Part shown: positions 22,398 to 29,343 of the stretch, one piece after another
How positions within the stretch are numbered: the stretch's first letter is position 1
How the letters are laid out: every line of letters begins with the position of its first letter
Assembly (NCBI GenBank): GCA_938004815.1
Contig: CALKVR010000172.1
Span: 1-29,343, forward strand
Direction of reading: 5' to 3'
DNA from: an uncultured Polyangiaceae bacterium
GTDB taxonomy: Bacteria > Myxococcota_A > Polyangia > Polyangiales > Polyangiaceae
Length of the DNA: 29,343 nt
Program-made: the position numbers and the translations under genes
Notes under the pieces: model-generated
Seen by the model: only the letters and a program-made list of their open reading frames with translations
What the model was told of the DNA's origin: nothing
The model's database searches: none

Positions 22398-23465
22398 TCA
22401 GCGTTTCGTCAGCCTCATCACCGCCCGCTCCGGCGTCGCCTCGATCCAGTAGATCGCGACCTCGTCGGCCGCGATCGCGGTCGGCCCGACCAAGCCGTCT
22501 GCGATCGGTAACGTGCCGGTCGCGCGCGTACGACCGATGGCGACGATCGAGCCGTCGGCCGCGCCGCTCCCGGTCACCGTGACATAGAGGAGCTCGTCGT
22601 CGACGGCGAGGTCGCGCGGACCATCGAGGGAGACCAAGAAGAGCCGACCTCCACCGCTCGGGTTTTCGCGCGAGACGGTGCCCGCTTCGACATCGGCGAC
22701 CCACACACCCTCCGGCATCACGAGGAGCGACGCGGGGCGGATCATGCCGCTCATCAGGGTTTCGGGCGCGCTGTCTCCGTCCAGGTACAGGCGCTGAAGG
22801 TGGCCAGGCGTATGACCGCCCACCCAATACAAGCGAGACCAGTCCTTGGCCGCCGGCTGAACGGCCAGATCGGCGGCGAGCGGCGCCGGGTCCACCAGCA
22901 CCTCGGTGGGGCCGCCGTCGGCGCCGACGGAGCCGATCACGCCCGAGGGCGCGTTCGAAGAGAAGAAGACGCTGTACCCATCGGTGGTGATCGCATGGGC
23001 CCCGCCCGGCACGGAGGATAGGAGGACAGACGTGTCATTGTCTTTGTCCGAGCGCCAGACCCCGGTCTCGGCCCCCCACGCGAGCCACGAGCCCATGACG
23101 ACGAGGCTGTGCGCCGGCCCGCCGCCGCCCGTGATCGTCTCGACCGGCCCGCCTGACTTCGAAACGCGACGAACCAGACCGTCGTCGCGCGACGTCACGT
23201 AGACGTGGGTCTCGTCGAGCGCGAGATCGCTCGCCTCGAAGCCGACCGCGATCGGGCACGGGTCCGAGTCGCACACGGGCGCGCCGCCCGCTCCCGAGCT
23301 CGAGCTCGAGCTCGCTGCGCCGTTCGCCGCCACGTTGCTGACCGCGGTCGCAGCCGGCGGTCCGCCGCCCTCGCCACCGTCGTCGTCGTCGTCGGGGATG
23401 ACGAGCACCTCGCTGCAGCCGAAGTGCAAGAGGAGGGTCACGAAGAGGGTCGGACGGACCGCCAT
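22398..23465 (-). CDS. Beta-propeller lipoprotein
   Basis: Start corrected to ATG 23465 (lipobox LLHFGC). About six blade-like repeats: LALDETHVYVT, ITTDGYSVFFS, RLYWV, GVWVA, LAVDDELLYVT, IAADEVAIYWI. Confidence 0.8.
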   Translation of the reverse strand: MAVRPTLFVTLLLHFGCSEVLVIPDDDDDGGEGGGPPAATAVSNVAANGAASSSSSSGAGGAPVCDSDPCPIAVGFEASDLALDETHVYVTSRDDGLVRRVSKSGGPVETITGGGGPAHSLVVMGSWLAWGAETGVWRSDKDNDTSVLLSSVPGGAHAITTDGYSVFFSSNAPSGVIGSVGADGGPTEVLVDPAPLAADLAVQPAAKDWSRLYWVGGHTPGHLQRLYLDGDSAPETLMSGMIRPASLLVMPEGVWVADVEAGTVSRENPSGGGRLFLVSLDGPRDLAVDDELLYVTVTGSGAADGSIVAIGRTRATGTLPIADGLVGPTAIAADEVAIYWIEATPERAVMRLTKR

Positions 23466-23567
23466 CCCCGATGCGTAGCGTCGCGCGCATCGATCGGCCA
23501 CCCGCGACTTTGCGATGGGATTGTTCGGCTTTACCGGACGCCTCACGAGTGCGCTATAGAGCCGGCC

Positions 23568-24377
23568 ATGTCTCCGCGATCTGGTTGGCTCCTCGCCGCT
23601 CTGTCGTTCGGTGCCCTCGCGTGCTCGCCGGCCCGCGGCGGCGTCACCACCGCCGATCGCGAGCCCGCTCTCACCACGAATCCCGAGCCCGCACAGCCGA
23701 CCACGACGGTCGCGGTGCCGGAGCCGCCGGTCAAGGCGTGCACCAAGATGGGGTGCATGAGCACGCTCGGCGTCGTGGTCCAAGACAAGCCCGGACAAAA
23801 GGGCGCCTACGTGATCGAGGTCGAGGCGGGCGATCAGAAGGGTCGCTGTGAGGCGAGGCTGCCGGCCCCGCGCTGCGGCGAGCCGTGGACGCGGTGCGAG
23901 GGCACGCTGCCCCTCATGGCCAAAGAGGGTGAGATCTGCAAGAAGCCGCCGGCCGAGCACACGCTCCCCCCGCTCACGATCGGCGCGGCGCCCGAGAAGG
24001 TCATCGTCCGCGTCCTCCGCGACAAGAAGCAGGTACACGAAGAGACGGTCGCGCCGCCCTACGACGCGCTCCAGCCGAACGGCCCCGGGTGCGAGCCGAC
24101 CTGCAAGCAGGCCGAGATCGGCGTCGCGGTGGGCGGCGCGCCGCCCGTGCGCGTGAAGACCGACGCCGAGGCGGTGGCAGCTGCCACCAAGTGCGCGCGG
24201 GATCGCAAGACGAAGGGCGTGTGGAAGAGCGATCTCGTCTACGAGAGCCCCACCGTCACCAAGGTCGGCGACAAGTGGCTCGTCACGTTCAACGAGCAGA
24301 CGCCCAAGGGCAAGCCGCAAGGCGCCGCGCTGTTCGTCACCGCCGCGGGCGGCTGCGCGTACGCGCCGCAAGAGTAG
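23568..24377 (+). CDS. Hypothetical Cys-containing lipoprotein
   Basis: Start corrected to ATG 23568 (lipobox FGALAC); CTKMGC and NGPGCEPTC motifs; small extra C-terminal domain. Confidence 0.78.
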   Translation: MSPRSGWLLAALSFGALACSPARGGVTTADREPALTTNPEPAQPTTTVAVPEPPVKACTKMGCMSTLGVVVQDKPGQKGAYVIEVEAGDQKGRCEARLPAPRCGEPWTRCEGTLPLMAKEGEICKKPPAEHTLPPLTIGAAPEKVIVRVLRDKKQVHEETVAPPYDALQPNGPGCEPTCKQAEIGVAVGGAPPVRVKTDAEAVAAATKCARDRKTKGVWKSDLVYESPTVTKVGDKWLVTFNEQTPKGKPQGAALFVTAAGGCAYAPQE

Positions 24378-24380
24378 CGC

Positions 24381-24396
24381 TGGCATGTGACCTGCA
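24381..24396 (+). promoter_or_regulatory. Candidate sigma-54 promoter of gpsA
   Basis: TGGCATG-TGAC-CTGCA versus consensus TGGCACG-N4-TTGCW; correct GG-to-GC spacing, two mismatches. Confidence 0.5.
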
Positions 24397-24408
24397 TCGC
24401 TCGCGGGC

Positions 24409-25434
24409 GTGGATCCGCAGCGCGCGCCCGTCGCCGTCCTCGGTGCAGGAAACTGGGGAACGGTCGTCGCCGACCGCGTAGCGAGAAACGGCCGCGAGGT
24501 GCGGCTCTGGACCCGCAGCGCGGCCGCGCGCGACGAAATCAACCTGGATCGCCAGAACGCACGCGCCGTTCCCGGGCTTCGGCTCCATCCGCGCGTGCGC
24601 GCCGTCACCGATCCGCGCGACGCCCTCGAGCCTGCGGCGCTCGTATTCGTCATGGTGCCCGCGCAAGCCATGCGCGACGTGTGCAAAACCGTCGGCGACC
24701 ACCTTCGGCCCTACCACTTCGTCGTGCACGGCACGAAGGGCCTCGAGATCGGCACCCGCGCGCGGATGAGTGAGATCATCCACGACGAGACGTGCGTCAG
24801 GCAGCTCGGGATGCTCTCCGGCCCCAACATCGCCGCCGAGATCGCGCGAGGCGAGCCGGCCGGGACGGTCGTCGTCAGCCACTACCCGGCGGTGATCGAC
24901 GCGGCCAAGGCCGCGCTCGCGTGCGACTCGCTCATGGTCTTCTACGGGGAGGATCTCATCGGGGCCGAGATCGCCAGCGCGCTCAAGAACGTGATCGCGC
25001 TCGCGGCCGGCATGGCGGCCGAGATGGGCTTCGGCGAGAACGCCAAGGCGTTCCTCGTGACCCGGGGCCTCGCCGAGACGACGCGGGTCGCCGTCACGCT
25101 CGGCGCCCAACCCGCCACGTTCTCGGGCCTCGCCACCCTCGGCGATCTCGTCGTCACCTGCGCGAGCGAGCACTCGCGCAACCATCGGATCGGTCGCGCC
25201 CTCGCACGCGGGACGCCGCTGGCCCAAGCGCTCGAAGAGCTCGGCATGGTGGCCGAGGGCGTCTCCACCAGCATCGTCGCCCACGACCTCGCGCGAGACA
25301 TCGGCGTCGAGGCGCCGCTCATCGAAGCCGTCTACCGCATCGTCCACGAAGGCCTCGCCCCGAAAGACGCGCTCACCGAGCTCATGCGAACACCGTCGGG
25401 CCGCGACGTCGCGTTGTTCAGCTCGGCGAGCTGA
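24409..25434 (+). CDS. gpsA: NAD(P)H-dependent glycerol-3-phosphate dehydrogenase
   Basis: VAVLGAGNWGT, TKGLE, LSGPNIAAE, ALKNVIALAAG, LGDLVVTC.SEHSRN, VAEG. Confidence 0.95.
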   Translation: MDPQRAPVAVLGAGNWGTVVADRVARNGREVRLWTRSAAARDEINLDRQNARAVPGLRLHPRVRAVTDPRDALEPAALVFVMVPAQAMRDVCKTVGDHLRPYHFVVHGTKGLEIGTRARMSEIIHDETCVRQLGMLSGPNIAAEIARGEPAGTVVVSHYPAVIDAAKAALACDSLMVFYGEDLIGAEIASALKNVIALAAGMAAEMGFGENAKAFLVTRGLAETTRVAVTLGAQPATFSGLATLGDLVVTCASEHSRNHRIGRALARGTPLAQALEELGMVAEGVSTSIVAHDLARDIGVEAPLIEAVYRIVHEGLAPKDALTELMRTPSGRDVALFSSAS

Positions 25435-25457
25435 GCTCGGTTGTAAGCTGGTCCGCG

Positions 25458-26090
25458 GTGGACCCCTACCGGAAGCAGGAGATCAGCGGCGCGCCATTCT
25501 CGCTGCTTCGTGACGAGAGCACGATCGGCTCCTCGTGCGCGATCGTCCGGGTGCCGTGCGACGGCGCCGCGTTCGTCGCCGCCCTCCTCGGCGCGTGGCC
25601 CGAGCTCGAGGTCATCGAAGATCGATCGGGCGCCGATATCGAGGCCCTCCGTCGCGCCTTCGTCGAAGCCCCCGTCACTGGCCTCGTCCTCACCGTCGTC
25701 GGCCTCGTCGCGTGGCGCGGCGAGACCCTCTGCATCGACCCGAGCCGCAGCTGGTGGAGCGAGACCGCCACCATGGCTCGCCTCAGCGCCCCCCTCGGTC
25801 GCGTCGTCTGCGCCATCGTCGACGTCCCGTTCGCCGCCTTCGGCGTCCGCTGGTTCGAGCGCGGCGCTGCCCTCCGCAAGGTCCTCGTCGCCAACGGCCA
25901 CCTCGAGCTCGACGGCCCCACCGTCCAAGACGAAGTCGGCTTCGACATCGGCAAGCTCGACGCCCCGACCGCGCGCGCCGTCGCCCGCCTCCCCGACGAG
26001 CTCGCGCTCGAGCACATCGAGCCCGTGCGCGTGATCACCCTGCGTGACCACGCGGCCGAGTCGCTGCTCGGCGCGGCGTCGAGCAGGTAG
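25458..26090 (+). CDS. Hypothetical protein
   Basis: C-terminal part of track ORF 24792..26090. Start inferred at GTG 25458 (after the gpsA stop; TAAGCT-N8-GTG). Codon usage is host-like. Confidence 0.65.
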   Translation: MDPYRKQEISGAPFSLLRDESTIGSSCAIVRVPCDGAAFVAALLGAWPELEVIEDRSGADIEALRRAFVEAPVTGLVLTVVGLVAWRGETLCIDPSRSWWSETATMARLSAPLGRVVCAIVDVPFAAFGVRWFERGAALRKVLVANGHLELDGPTVQDEVGFDIGKLDAPTARAVARLPDELALEHIEPVRVITLRDHAAESLLGAASSR

Positions 26091-26111
26091 AACCGGCGCC
26101 GAACCCTCGCC

Positions 26112-27068
26112 TCACGCGCGCGTGACTTCCAGATACGCGACGTTGCTCTCGCGGTCAGTGAAGGTCCGCAGGTCCCCGATCGCGCGACCGTCGAGCCGAA
26201 CGGCAAGCGCCGCGAGCGCCTGCTCGTGGCGCAAGTTCAGCCGCCAGTCCATGAAGCACGCCATGTAGGCCCGCCCGTGGTGTCCGGGAACGAAGTTCGC
26301 CACCAGCAACCGCCCGCCCGATCGAAGCGCCCGGAAGAGCCGCTCGATCAGCAGCGAGGCGAACGTGTCGTCGAGGTAGTCGAGAAGCCCGGCCGCATAC
26401 GCCAGGTCGACGCCGTCGAACGTGCTGCGGCCCTTCAAGAGCCCGCCCACCGACTCGCGCACCGGTTCGATGGACGTTCCGCGCAGAGAGCGCGCGACGA
26501 CCGCGAGGCTCTCGACATCCTGGTCGATCGCGATCAGGCGTCTCAGGCGTCCGTCCGTCACCGCTGGCGAGCAGGTCGCCTCGCGAAGGTGCCCGCAGGC
26601 GACCGCGACCACGGTAGCGGCTTCAGCCTCGGCGGCGGCTTGGTCGATCGCTTCCGCAAGCAAGCCGCGTCGATACCGTACGCTCCGGGCCGCCGAGCAG
26701 CCCGTGGTTGCGCGAAATACGGCGGCGCCGACATCCGTGGTCCCTGCGGGAGGGCGCCCGTCATAGATGAAATCGAGCATCACCGCGTCGCCCGCGTAGC
26801 CGCGCGGCTTGCGGTACGCCCTCGCGGTGTAGGGGTCCTGCTGCAGTACCGCGTGTATCTGGTGTGCGCGACAAGCCGCGATCAACTCCGGCTCCAGCCC
26901 GGGCAGCTCGCGCATGACCGTATCGAGCGAGACGATGAGCTCGCTGACAGCATCGAAGCCGTCGCCAGCAAGGACGCGCTCGAGCGTTGCGTCCAGAGCG
27001 CGGTCCAATCGACCGCGAACGCGCGCGGTCGAGCTCGTCGTGATGGTGATGCAGTTGGTCTGAGTCAT
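26112..27068 (-). CDS. Class I SAM-dependent methyltransferase, PhcB-like
   Basis: RAYRKPRGYAGDAVMLDFIY, VVAVACG (motif I), AYAAGLLDYL, GGRLLVANF, MDWRLNLR; AAGGGGA RBS. Confidence 0.82.
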   Translation of the reverse strand: MTQTNCITITTSSTARVRGRLDRALDATLERVLAGDGFDAVSELIVSLDTVMRELPGLEPELIAACRAHQIHAVLQQDPYTARAYRKPRGYAGDAVMLDFIYDGRPPAGTTDVGAAVFRATTGCSAARSVRYRRGLLAEAIDQAAAEAEAATVVAVACGHLREATCSPAVTDGRLRRLIAIDQDVESLAVVARSLRGTSIEPVRESVGGLLKGRSTFDGVDLAYAAGLLDYLDDTFASLLIERLFRALRSGGRLLVANFVPGHHGRAYMACFMDWRLNLRHEQALAALAVRLDGRAIGDLRTFTDRESNVAYLEVTRA

Positions 27069-27095
27069 GAGAGTCCCCTTCCGTGTGTGTCGCTC

Positions 27096-27111
27096 AGCAA
27101 CCGTCGTGCCC
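27096..27111 (-). promoter_or_regulatory. Sigma-54 (-24/-12) promoter of the PhcB-like methyltransferase
   Basis: Minus strand GGGCACG-ACGG-TTGCT: one mismatch to TGGCACG-N4-TTGCW, 27 nt upstream of the ATG, with an RBS in the leader. Confidence 0.72.
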
Positions 27112-27399
27112 GGCGCACCTCCGAGTCGCTCCCGGGGTCATGCCGCGGCATCGCAGCCGCCGCCGCGCCCGCATGGAGCGGCCTTGCGCATTCCTTGAGC
27201 GAACGCTGCGCGATTCGCGCACCGCCTGAGACATGTCTCGGACGGGCAGCGTCTGGTGCTCGACCACGCCATCCCGATTCGGCTCGGAGGCGCGCTCGAT
27301 CCGACGCGCGCGGGTGAGTCAAAAGAAATAGCGCGACCTGAGGCGCTGACCCTCGTCGGTACGGTATCGCAGCGAATTTTCGCTCAAGGAGCCCGTACC

Positions 27400-27744
27400 A
27401 TGCGCTACGTCAAATTCTCGATCCTCGGCATCAGCCTGCTCTCGGCCGTTCTCTCCCTCTCCTACGGGGCCCTCGGCTTCGGGGGGCAAGGGATCTTCCT
27501 CCTGGTGTCCTGCCTGACCCCGGCGCTCCTCTGCGCCTTCGGCACCTTCGTCAAGCCGAGCATGCCTCGGTGGGCGGGCGCTCTCAGCATCCTCGCCTTC
27601 CTCATCGTCGGCATGAAGACCTCGGGCGGCAGCTCGGATCTTCAGAACGTCATGCTGCTCGCGTTCGTCGGGCTCATCCTGAGCATCGTGATCACCATCC
27701 GTCCCGATCGCGTCGCGGCCGCTGGTGTTGCCAGGGTTGCTTGA
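27400..27744 (+). CDS. Small 4-TM membrane protein
   Basis: Start corrected to ATG 27400 (AAGGAG RBS, 8 nt spacing); 114 aa, four hydrophobic segments. Confidence 0.78.
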   Translation: MRYVKFSILGISLLSAVLSLSYGALGFGGQGIFLLVSCLTPALLCAFGTFVKPSMPRWAGALSILAFLIVGMKTSGGSSDLQNVMLLAFVGLILSIVITIRPDRVAAAGVARVA

Positions 27745-27840
27745 GCGTCAGTCGGGTGGGGGGAGACGACGCGGAGGCAAGGGCGGTGAACCCGCGTGAG
27801 AGCCCGCACATCCAGCGGTGCAGGCATCGCGTCCCGAGGG

Positions 27841-29343
27841 TCATGGGCGTCGAGCAGCCGACACGCGGCAAAATGGCGGGCCGCCATCGAAACCGACCGC
27901 CACGGCGTACGGCTCCTGCTGCGCATCCCGCCAGATCCGCACCCACGTACCGGCATCGTCGGAGGTGCACGCACCATCGAGCGGCTCTTCGCACACCATG
28001 AAGTTGTCGGCGCAGTAGCCGATGTCACTCCCGGTACCCAACGCTAGCGACTGGGTCTCGCCCCCGACCTCGACCGTCGCAGCAAGCTCGGTACGTGCCG
28101 TGGGATCGTACGTCAGGGTCAAGGTGCGGGCCACGCCGTCACCGTTGAGACCGATGGGATCGACGTAAGTCCCCGCGACCGACGCCACGAGCGTCGGATC
28201 CCCCACACAACTCGTTTCGAAGAAATCAACACCGCTCAACGTCGGGTCGAAGAGCGGGGGGAGGCCGAGGATGAGGTCACTTGGGCTCCCGTAAACCGCA
28301 TTCAGGACCACCACGATCGCGAGTCGCCGCTCTTTGAAGAACCAGAAGCCGGTCGAGAAGCCGAAACCGGATTGGAACCCGTAGAGGATATCGTCGTTGA
28401 TCGCTTCCACGCGCCACCCGTCGAGCCCGAAGGCAGCGTAATCCGTGGTCCAGAAGTGCGGCCCTTGCGGCGCGAGCATCCCGTCGGGAGCTGTCAGCGC
28501 GGTCTGAAGAATGTCGCCGGGGCCACCCGTGAGGTACCCGAACAACTTCGCCAAATCGAGTGGGCTCCCGTAGTAACCGATCGACGGATCGTCGGCGGCA
28601 CACTCGGTCGGCGGCGTCGAGTCGACGAACAGGTTGTCGTGCCCGAACGAAAAGTCCCCTGACGCGAACGCCGACTCGCCGTACCCCCCCGCCATCGCGA
28701 GGGGGTCGAGCACCCGAGCTCGCGCGGCGTCTTCGTAGGGGATGCCGTCCGCGCGCTCGAGCGCGAGGCCGGCGATCTGCGCGTTGGACCGGTGATACAT
28801 GTGATACATCGCGCCGGGCGGCGAGTAGAGAAGCGGTACCTCGGCGTTCTGAACCGAGTCTTCGAGCGAGACGCACGGGCCGGGCGACCACCACTGATCG
28901 ACGAGGGCGCGGTAGCCGCTCGTGCGATTCAGGAGGTTGCGGAGCGTGATGTCGCTCGCAGCACCATGTTCGCTGGGCTCGACCCACACACTGTCTACCG
29001 CCGTTGTGATCGGGGCATCGAGGTCGAGCTTGCCCTCCTCGACCGCGTCGAGGACGCCGATGGTCGAGATGAGCCCACTCATGACGCCCGCGTTGAACAG
29101 GGTGTCGGGCGTGATGGGATCGCAGCTCGCGCCACGCTTTGAGCCAGCAACGCCCAACCCTGCCAGCTGGCCGCCCTCGACGACCACGAACGCGCCCCCG
29201 GGCACGCCTTGCGACTCCAGCGTGTACTTCAGGATAGCCATCCCCACTTTGATGCGCGGGTCGTCGCTTTGCGTTCCCGAGCAATCCGCTCCGCCTCCAG
29301 CTCCCTGACCACCGAGCCCATCCCCTCCCGCCCCCCCCGTGTC
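27841..29343 (-). CDS. Beta-lactamase/serine-hydrolase-fold protein with degenerate catalytic motifs; 5' end runs off the window
   Basis: GVPGGAFVVV, ITPDTLF, VEEGKLDLDAPI, ITLRNLLNRTSG, PPG and LDPLAM are family-typical. The frame stays open to 29343 through a Gly-rich linker (DTGGAGGDGLGGQGAGGG). Confidence 0.85.
   Translation of the reverse strand, partial: DTGGAGGDGLGGQGAGGGADCSGTQSDDPRIKVGMAILKYTLESQGVPGGAFVVVEGGQLAGLGVAGSKRGASCDPITPDTLFNAGVMSGLISTIGVLDAVEEGKLDLDAPITTAVDSVWVEPSEHGAASDITLRNLLNRTSGYRALVDQWWSPGPCVSLEDSVQNAEVPLLYSPPGAMYHMYHRSNAQIAGLALERADGIPYEDAARARVLDPLAMAGGYGESAFASGDFSFGHDNLFVDSTPPTECAADDPSIGYYGSPLDLAKLFGYLTGGPGDILQTALTAPDGMLAPQGPHFWTTDYAAFGLDGWRVEAINDDILYGFQSGFGFSTGFWFFKERRLAIVVVLNAVYGSPSDLILGLPPLFDPTLSGVDFFETSCVGDPTLVASVAGTYVDPIGLNGDGVARTLTLTYDPTARTELAATVEVGGETQSLALGTGSDIGYCADNFMVCEEPLDGACTSDDAGTWVRIWRDAQQEPYAVAVGFDGGPPFCRVSAARRP

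Follow-up and report, generated by a model that had tools for sequence, protein, structure and literature searches.

The locus considered here raises the question of what a stand-alone methyltransferase gene of a Polyangiaceae bacterium makes and what switches it on. The gene lies near the right-hand end of the stretch of DNA that was analysed (29,343 nt, the window), and a first-pass annotation made from the sequence alone had read it as a sigma-54-controlled, PhcB-like synthase of a volatile signal with candidate enhancer palindromes upstream. The explanation that we favour, with a probability of roughly 0.6, is that the gene encodes a stand-alone methyltransferase of a short PhcB-related clade, which would be driven by a sigma-54 promoter and would act, with SAM as the methyl donor, on a fatty-acid-derived substrate (features in Table 1).

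Table 1. Features of the methyltransferase gene and its upstream region (window coordinates)
Feature	Position	Strand	Basis or remark
CDS, class I SAM-dependent methyltransferase of 318 aa, short-form KPRGYAGD clade (PhcB-related)	26112..27068	-	ORF, motifs, homologs, AF2 model
Shine-Dalgarno-like GGAAGGGGA	27073..27081	-	read from sequence; ends 4 nt 5´ of ATG
Sigma-54 -24/-12 element GGCACGACGGTTGCT	27096..27110	-	exact consensus match, non-coding, 27 nt 5´ of ATG
Perfect 12-bp palindrome ATGCCGCGGCAT	27140..27151		centre ~60 bp upstream of predicted +1; unique in genome
24-bp imperfect inverted repeat with perfect core GAGACATGTCTC at 27228-27239	27222..27245		centre ~148 bp upstream of +1

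The 318-aa ORF begins with an ATG that has no in-frame start codon 5´ of it, and its translation contains every motif that had been quoted for it (KPRGYAGD, beginning at residue 87, VACGH, YAAGLLDYL, GGRLLVANF and DWRL). Searches against Pfam and NCBIfam returned methyltransferase matches below the curated cut-offs only. About 300 metagenome proteins match the window protein at 40-54% identity, and in a 30-sequence alignment (the window protein and 29 homologs), 32 columns are invariant, G159 and D182 among them; the window protein keeps all 32. An AlphaFold2 model built on this alignment (pLDDT 94, pTM 0.90) has a helical N-terminal cap over a Rossmann methyltransferase core in which strands and helices alternate. 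With Foldseek, the model matched at least 500 methyltransferase structures in the PDB, and after the best match, 3ocj, the next were the small-molecule methyltransferases SibL, SgvM and BchU. The ESM Atlas matches were unnamed methyltransferase clusters only, some with a cNMP-binding or PilZ fusion. The Rossmann-type fold expected of a class I methyltransferase, with the motif I glycine and an acidic residue ending strand 2, is present in the model, and assignment of the protein to the class I SAM-dependent methyltransferases is well supported. Its own genome (80.8% complete) contains one copy of the gene. To our knowledge, PhcB is the only characterised enzyme of the superfamily, and we know of no characterised member of the short KPRGYAGD clade; a literature search on PF12147, PhcB in Myxococcus and PilZ with PhcB returned nothing on the short-clade family.

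The neighbours of the gene in the window are a small membrane protein gene (divergent), a hypothetical gene (convergent), gpsA and the gene for a beta-lactamase-fold protein; none is a lipid or signalling gene, and none recurs beside the homologs at the 80 loci described below. Because the gene downstream is convergent, the methyltransferase transcript should be monocistronic. The contig carries neither an enhancer-binding protein (EBP) nor a histidine kinase (HATPase_c), so that the absence of an EBP and of a phcSR-type sensor remarked on in the first-pass annotation holds for the whole contig. No ortholog was detected in the 10 same-genus genomes searched. We also noted that gpsA, a 208-aa hypothetical protein and a 114-aa membrane protein do have same-genus homologs, on different contigs (window 23200-29343; L123-L126). 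Local gene order is not conserved within the genus, and no clean insertion is demonstrable. A metagenome scan returned one locus, without upstream sequence.

Species-representative genomes were then scanned for short-form homologs. At least 585 turned up, spread over many phyla; 80 loci (L014-L093) were kept, and an unbiased Pfam tally was made over the 129 nearest neighbours at these loci. The families at the head of the tally were FadL/TodX proteins (13), FA_desaturase (11), histidine kinases (9, with a further 10 giant AAA16-TPR-GAF kinases excluded because of their length), receiver domains (6), HD-GYP-type HD_5 (4), cNMP-binding (3) and GGDEF domains (2). Counted by locus, FadL channels are found beside the short-form homologs at 17 of the 80, mostly in Planctomycetota, and fatty-acid desaturases at 15 of the 80, in at least five phyla. 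The desaturase gene overlaps the methyltransferase stop codon at loci in Acidobacteriota and Betaproteobacteria and lies close to the homolog at loci in Planctomycetota, Myxococcota and Cyanobacteriota; in some Acidobacteriota, the methyltransferase, a desaturase and a FadL-like gene stand in a row. Other homologs have divergent regulators of ~370-465 aa that combine a GerE/LuxR HTH with an N-terminal part left unassigned (L016:613-2007, L033:888-2048 and L039:2559-3674) or a divergent GGDEF cyclase (L035:2319-3503), and on Rhizobium plasmids the divergent neighbours are GGDEF-EAL proteins (L012 and L013).

This guilt by association, which concerns other loci and not this one, supports a link of the short-clade family to signalling and to a fatty-acid-like substrate, and such recurrent lipid and signalling genes suggest a function that can be tested. 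A lipid-like substrate is plausible for the window protein as well. Because 28 residues are common with PhcB and family members have desaturase, FadL and signalling neighbours, we infer SAM-dependent methylation of a hydrophobic, fatty-acid-derived substrate. The proposal of a fatty-acid-derived product in the first-pass annotation thereby gains support that is indirect and at family level only, from the FadL and desaturase neighbours, while the volatile 3-hydroxy-fatty-acid methyl ester that it specified does not. Taken further, the same observations would make the short KPRGYAGD methyltransferases synthases of a novel class of fatty-acid-derived methylated signal, produced in many phyla and gated here by sigma-54 and an EBP, a proposal that we regard as tentative and rather unlikely. 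If it were true, the signal class would span Acidobacteriota, Planctomycetota, Myxococcota, Betaproteobacteria and Cyanobacteriota, partnered in those phyla by a cognate regulator as well as a desaturase and a FadL channel, and here a sigma-54 EBP would gate production instead.

The desaturases are also open to a reading in which they supply the substrate for a membrane-lipid or acyl-chain modification and not for a signal, for example methylation of an unsaturated chain or of a head group. The translational coupling of desaturase genes to homologs in Acidobacteriota, Betaproteobacteria and others fits such a role, as does the occurrence of phosphatidylethanolamine N-methyltransferase among the fold matches. 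No desaturase adjoins the window gene, however, the family is unrelated to the cyclopropane/mycolic-acid synthase type, and the frequent pairing with kinases and with LuxR-type, GGDEF and HD-GYP-type (Pfam HD_5) proteins fits signalling better, and we consider lipid modification an unlikely role.

The proposal in the first-pass annotation was more specific, namely a true PhcB-type synthase making a 3-hydroxy-fatty-acid methyl ester quorum signal. The phcBSRQ genes form the quorum-sensing system of Ralstonia and Cupriavidus, in which the PhcB methyltransferase makes 3-OH-PAME or 3-OH-MAME, and the gene order phcB-phcS-phcR-phcQ has been described for Ralstonia (PMC7694676). No Ralstonia phcB was present in the plasmid collection, and PhcBs were recognised by operon structure in Burkholderiales genomes. 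A profile search of 401 such genomes gave ~10 matches, whose open frames (467-511 aa) have the length that PhcB should have. Six Burkholderiales loci were examined, and in these genes of ~448, 365 and 335 aa come after a methyltransferase of 462-479 aa; Pfam identified the three downstream genes of one locus (L116) as a histidine kinase, a receiver-kinase hybrid and a receiver protein, an order matching that of Ralstonia phcB-phcS-phcR-phcQ (PMC7694676). The operon-defined PhcBs carry KPLGYAGD (at about residue 218) and YCAGLFDYL, which bears out the motifs KPLGYAGD and CAGLFDYL that the first-pass annotation gave for PhcB.

When compared by BLASTP with the methyltransferase of the L116 phcBSRQ operon (L116:4021-5415), the window protein showed 29% identity over 243 aa (E 4e-19), and 28 positions are conserved in both the short and the PhcB clades; homology to the PhcB methyltransferase domain is therefore real. 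Phylogeny nevertheless placed the window protein outside the PhcB clade, the outcome that the first-pass annotation had named as one that would refute its reading. A maximum-likelihood tree of 73 sequences (quick search) contains a short-type group of 54, made up of 51 short homologs, two Rhizobium plasmid proteins and the window protein, and this clade and the PhcB clade (support 98) are divided by a branch of 1.18 (SH-aLRT 100); one long myxobacterial form joins the PhcB clade. Within the short clade (SH-aLRT 100), the sequences closest to the window protein are P0002, P0003, P0007 and P0010, and a grouping of the window protein with the PhcB clade was rejected by the AU test (delta lnL 171, p 0.0001). 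Judged by these comparisons, the window protein is a distant cousin and not an ortholog of PhcB. At conserved positions that are candidates for the substrate pocket, the short clade and PhcB differ (R89/L, R134/I, H160/P and D184/S, short clade vs PhcB). These differences argue for a substrate other than that of PhcB and suggest that the two clades differ in this respect.

The PhcB-type reading does have the homology and the common motifs in its favour, together with the FadL channels and kinases among the family neighbours and the name "EF 3-hydroxypalmitic acid methyl ester biosynthesis protein", which JGI pipelines have given to many of the homologs. These names are automatic transfers, however, and the position outside the PhcB clade (AU p 1e-4), the absence of the ~130-aa N-terminal part, conserved residues unlike those of PhcB, and a contig with neither phcS/R/Q nor any histidine kinase all stand against a quorum signal synthase of this type, which we judge to be quite improbable. 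Automatic pipelines have carried the PhcB name to hundreds of distant proteins. Since the short forms make up a clade of their own, with a distinct set of conserved residues, the annotation is not to be trusted there.

We now turn to the control of the gene. The -24/-12 box, described in the first-pass annotation as near-perfect, fits GGCACG-N4-TTGCW exactly, and as a GG-N10-GC element it also answers to the fuller form TGGCACG-N4-TTGCW; it is correctly oriented with respect to the gene. It is the sole such site in the window, where 0.04 would be expected from shuffles. The predicted +1 falls near 27084-27086, giving a leader of ~16-18 nt, and the Shine-Dalgarno-like sequence lies between the box and the ATG. 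The genome has one match to rpoN and ~65 strong matches to Sigma54_activat (enhancer-binding proteins). Genome-wide, the 13 exact GGCACG-N4-TTGCW sites are not above chance as a raw count (shuffle-based expectation ~11), and 12 of the 13 are non-coding (without codon periodicity), mostly just 5´ of start codons. For the relaxed motif GGCAC-N5-TTGC, 70 of the 78 sites fall in non-coding sequence, and 54 have a GC3-rich ORF start within 60 nt downstream, compared to 23% non-coding and 7% near an ORF start for random control positions and 36 of 153 non-coding for scrambled motifs; coding status was called from codon-position GC and not by a gene caller. Because this genome-wide placement is far from random, a site of this type is very likely a working promoter. 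The statistics thus back the sigma-54 promoter that had been claimed for the methyltransferase gene, which very probably has one and is likely to belong to this genome's very large sigma-54 regulon. Given a sigma-54 promoter, expression should depend on an enhancer-binding protein encoded elsewhere.

Searches for other elements and for conservation of the box gave negative results. No sigma-70-like promoter was found between 25900 and 27500, and an Rfam search of the spacer region returned no element. Upstream of the 80 homologs, none has a sigma-54 box matching at 10 or more of 12 positions, a result that is uninformative if the promoter is lineage-specific, and 9 of 12 positions are reached by six of the 80, with ~7 expected. 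It is very unlikely that the -24/-12 match is fortuitous and that an unrecognised sigma-70-type promoter drives the gene: the number of exact sites close to the shuffle expectation and the lack of conservation upstream of homologs would be in keeping with this, but the non-coding placement of nearly all exact sites, mostly before start codons, against 23% in controls, and a spacer free of sigma-70-like sites are not.

We also observed that, among 61 GGCAC-N5-TTGC sites with a nearby ORF start, 28 have an ATG or GTG 11-14 nt after TTGCN, at the expected +1 (for example C409:15341, C688:1546, C931:618 and C1383:439), and many sigma-54 transcripts in this genome may be leaderless. The methyltransferase gene, with 27 nt from box to ATG, falls in the smaller class with short leaders.

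Both of the 12-bp palindromes reported upstream of the promoter are present as claimed, though the role of enhancers proposed for them had no backing beyond their position. The window contains 33 perfect 12-bp palindromes and the genome 0.97 per kb, and the Poisson probability of two in the 331-bp spacer is ~0.05. This density is compatible with chance, and each palindrome, GAGACATGTCTC as well as ATGCCGCGGCAT, has a single copy in the genome. A reading of the palindromes as demonstrated enhancers was rejected. ATGCCGCGGCAT is a possible candidate for a protein-binding site, and the longer repeat around GAGACATGTCTC, which lies at a distance plausible for an enhancer, is the best candidate for an EBP site by position only. 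The spacer also contains a perfect 12-nt inverted repeat, TTCGCTCAAGGA, at 27192-27203 and 27379-27390, the only two copies in the genome. One of these overlies the Shine-Dalgarno region of the divergent membrane-protein gene, and a GCAGCG run precedes both. The two copies may form a shared operator or may have arisen by a small duplication.

Collectively, the preferred reading of a sigma-54-driven, short-clade methyltransferase would work as follows. An EBP encoded elsewhere, one of the ~65, would recognise an upstream site, for which the inverted repeat near -148 is one possibility, and activate sigma-54 RNA polymerase at the -24/-12 box, and a short-leader mRNA would be made from the gene alone. 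The predicted product is a class I SAM-dependent methyltransferase for small molecules, cytoplasmic and stand-alone, from a widespread, uncharacterised clade of short proteins (~300-345 aa, KPRGYAGD) that is related to but clearly separate from PhcB. This enzyme would use SAM to methylate a small hydrophobic substrate, possibly at a carboxyl group as in PhcB.

Three known relatives put the protein in context. The best structural match to the AlphaFold2 model, and the sole PDB sequence match to the window protein, is 3ocj from Bordetella parapertussis (BPP1064; Foldseek E 7e-13, 19% identity, TM ~0.53-0.56), an uncharacterised structural-genomics entry that says nothing on substrate. PhcB has in common with the window protein the motifs KPxGYAGD, Y-x-AGL-x-DYL, GG-x-L-x-x-N and W-x-L-x-x-R. 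The window protein is the shorter of the two, as the first-pass annotation had remarked (318 aa vs 462-479 aa), and lacks the N-terminal extension of ~130 aa; in addition, PhcB is adjoined by phcS/R/Q, whereas the window gene has none of these and has a promoter of the sigma-54 type.

The third comparison is with PhcB-like paralogs in related myxobacterial genomes (L002-L011), which are ~480-590 aa long, 27-35% identical and carry PilZ(-like) or cNMP-binding domains. No such long PilZ/cNMP-fused form was seen in the window's own genome (80.8% complete). The fusions belong to the same methyltransferase domain family as the window protein, and the themes of their neighbourhoods (FadL, desaturase and kinases) resemble those of the short clade. 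They differ in having KPLGYAGD and a receptor domain for a second messenger, and the tree places them apart from the short clade, one of them with the PhcB clade. The window protein, unlike these fusions, has no regulatory domain of its own, and its control appears to be transcriptional.
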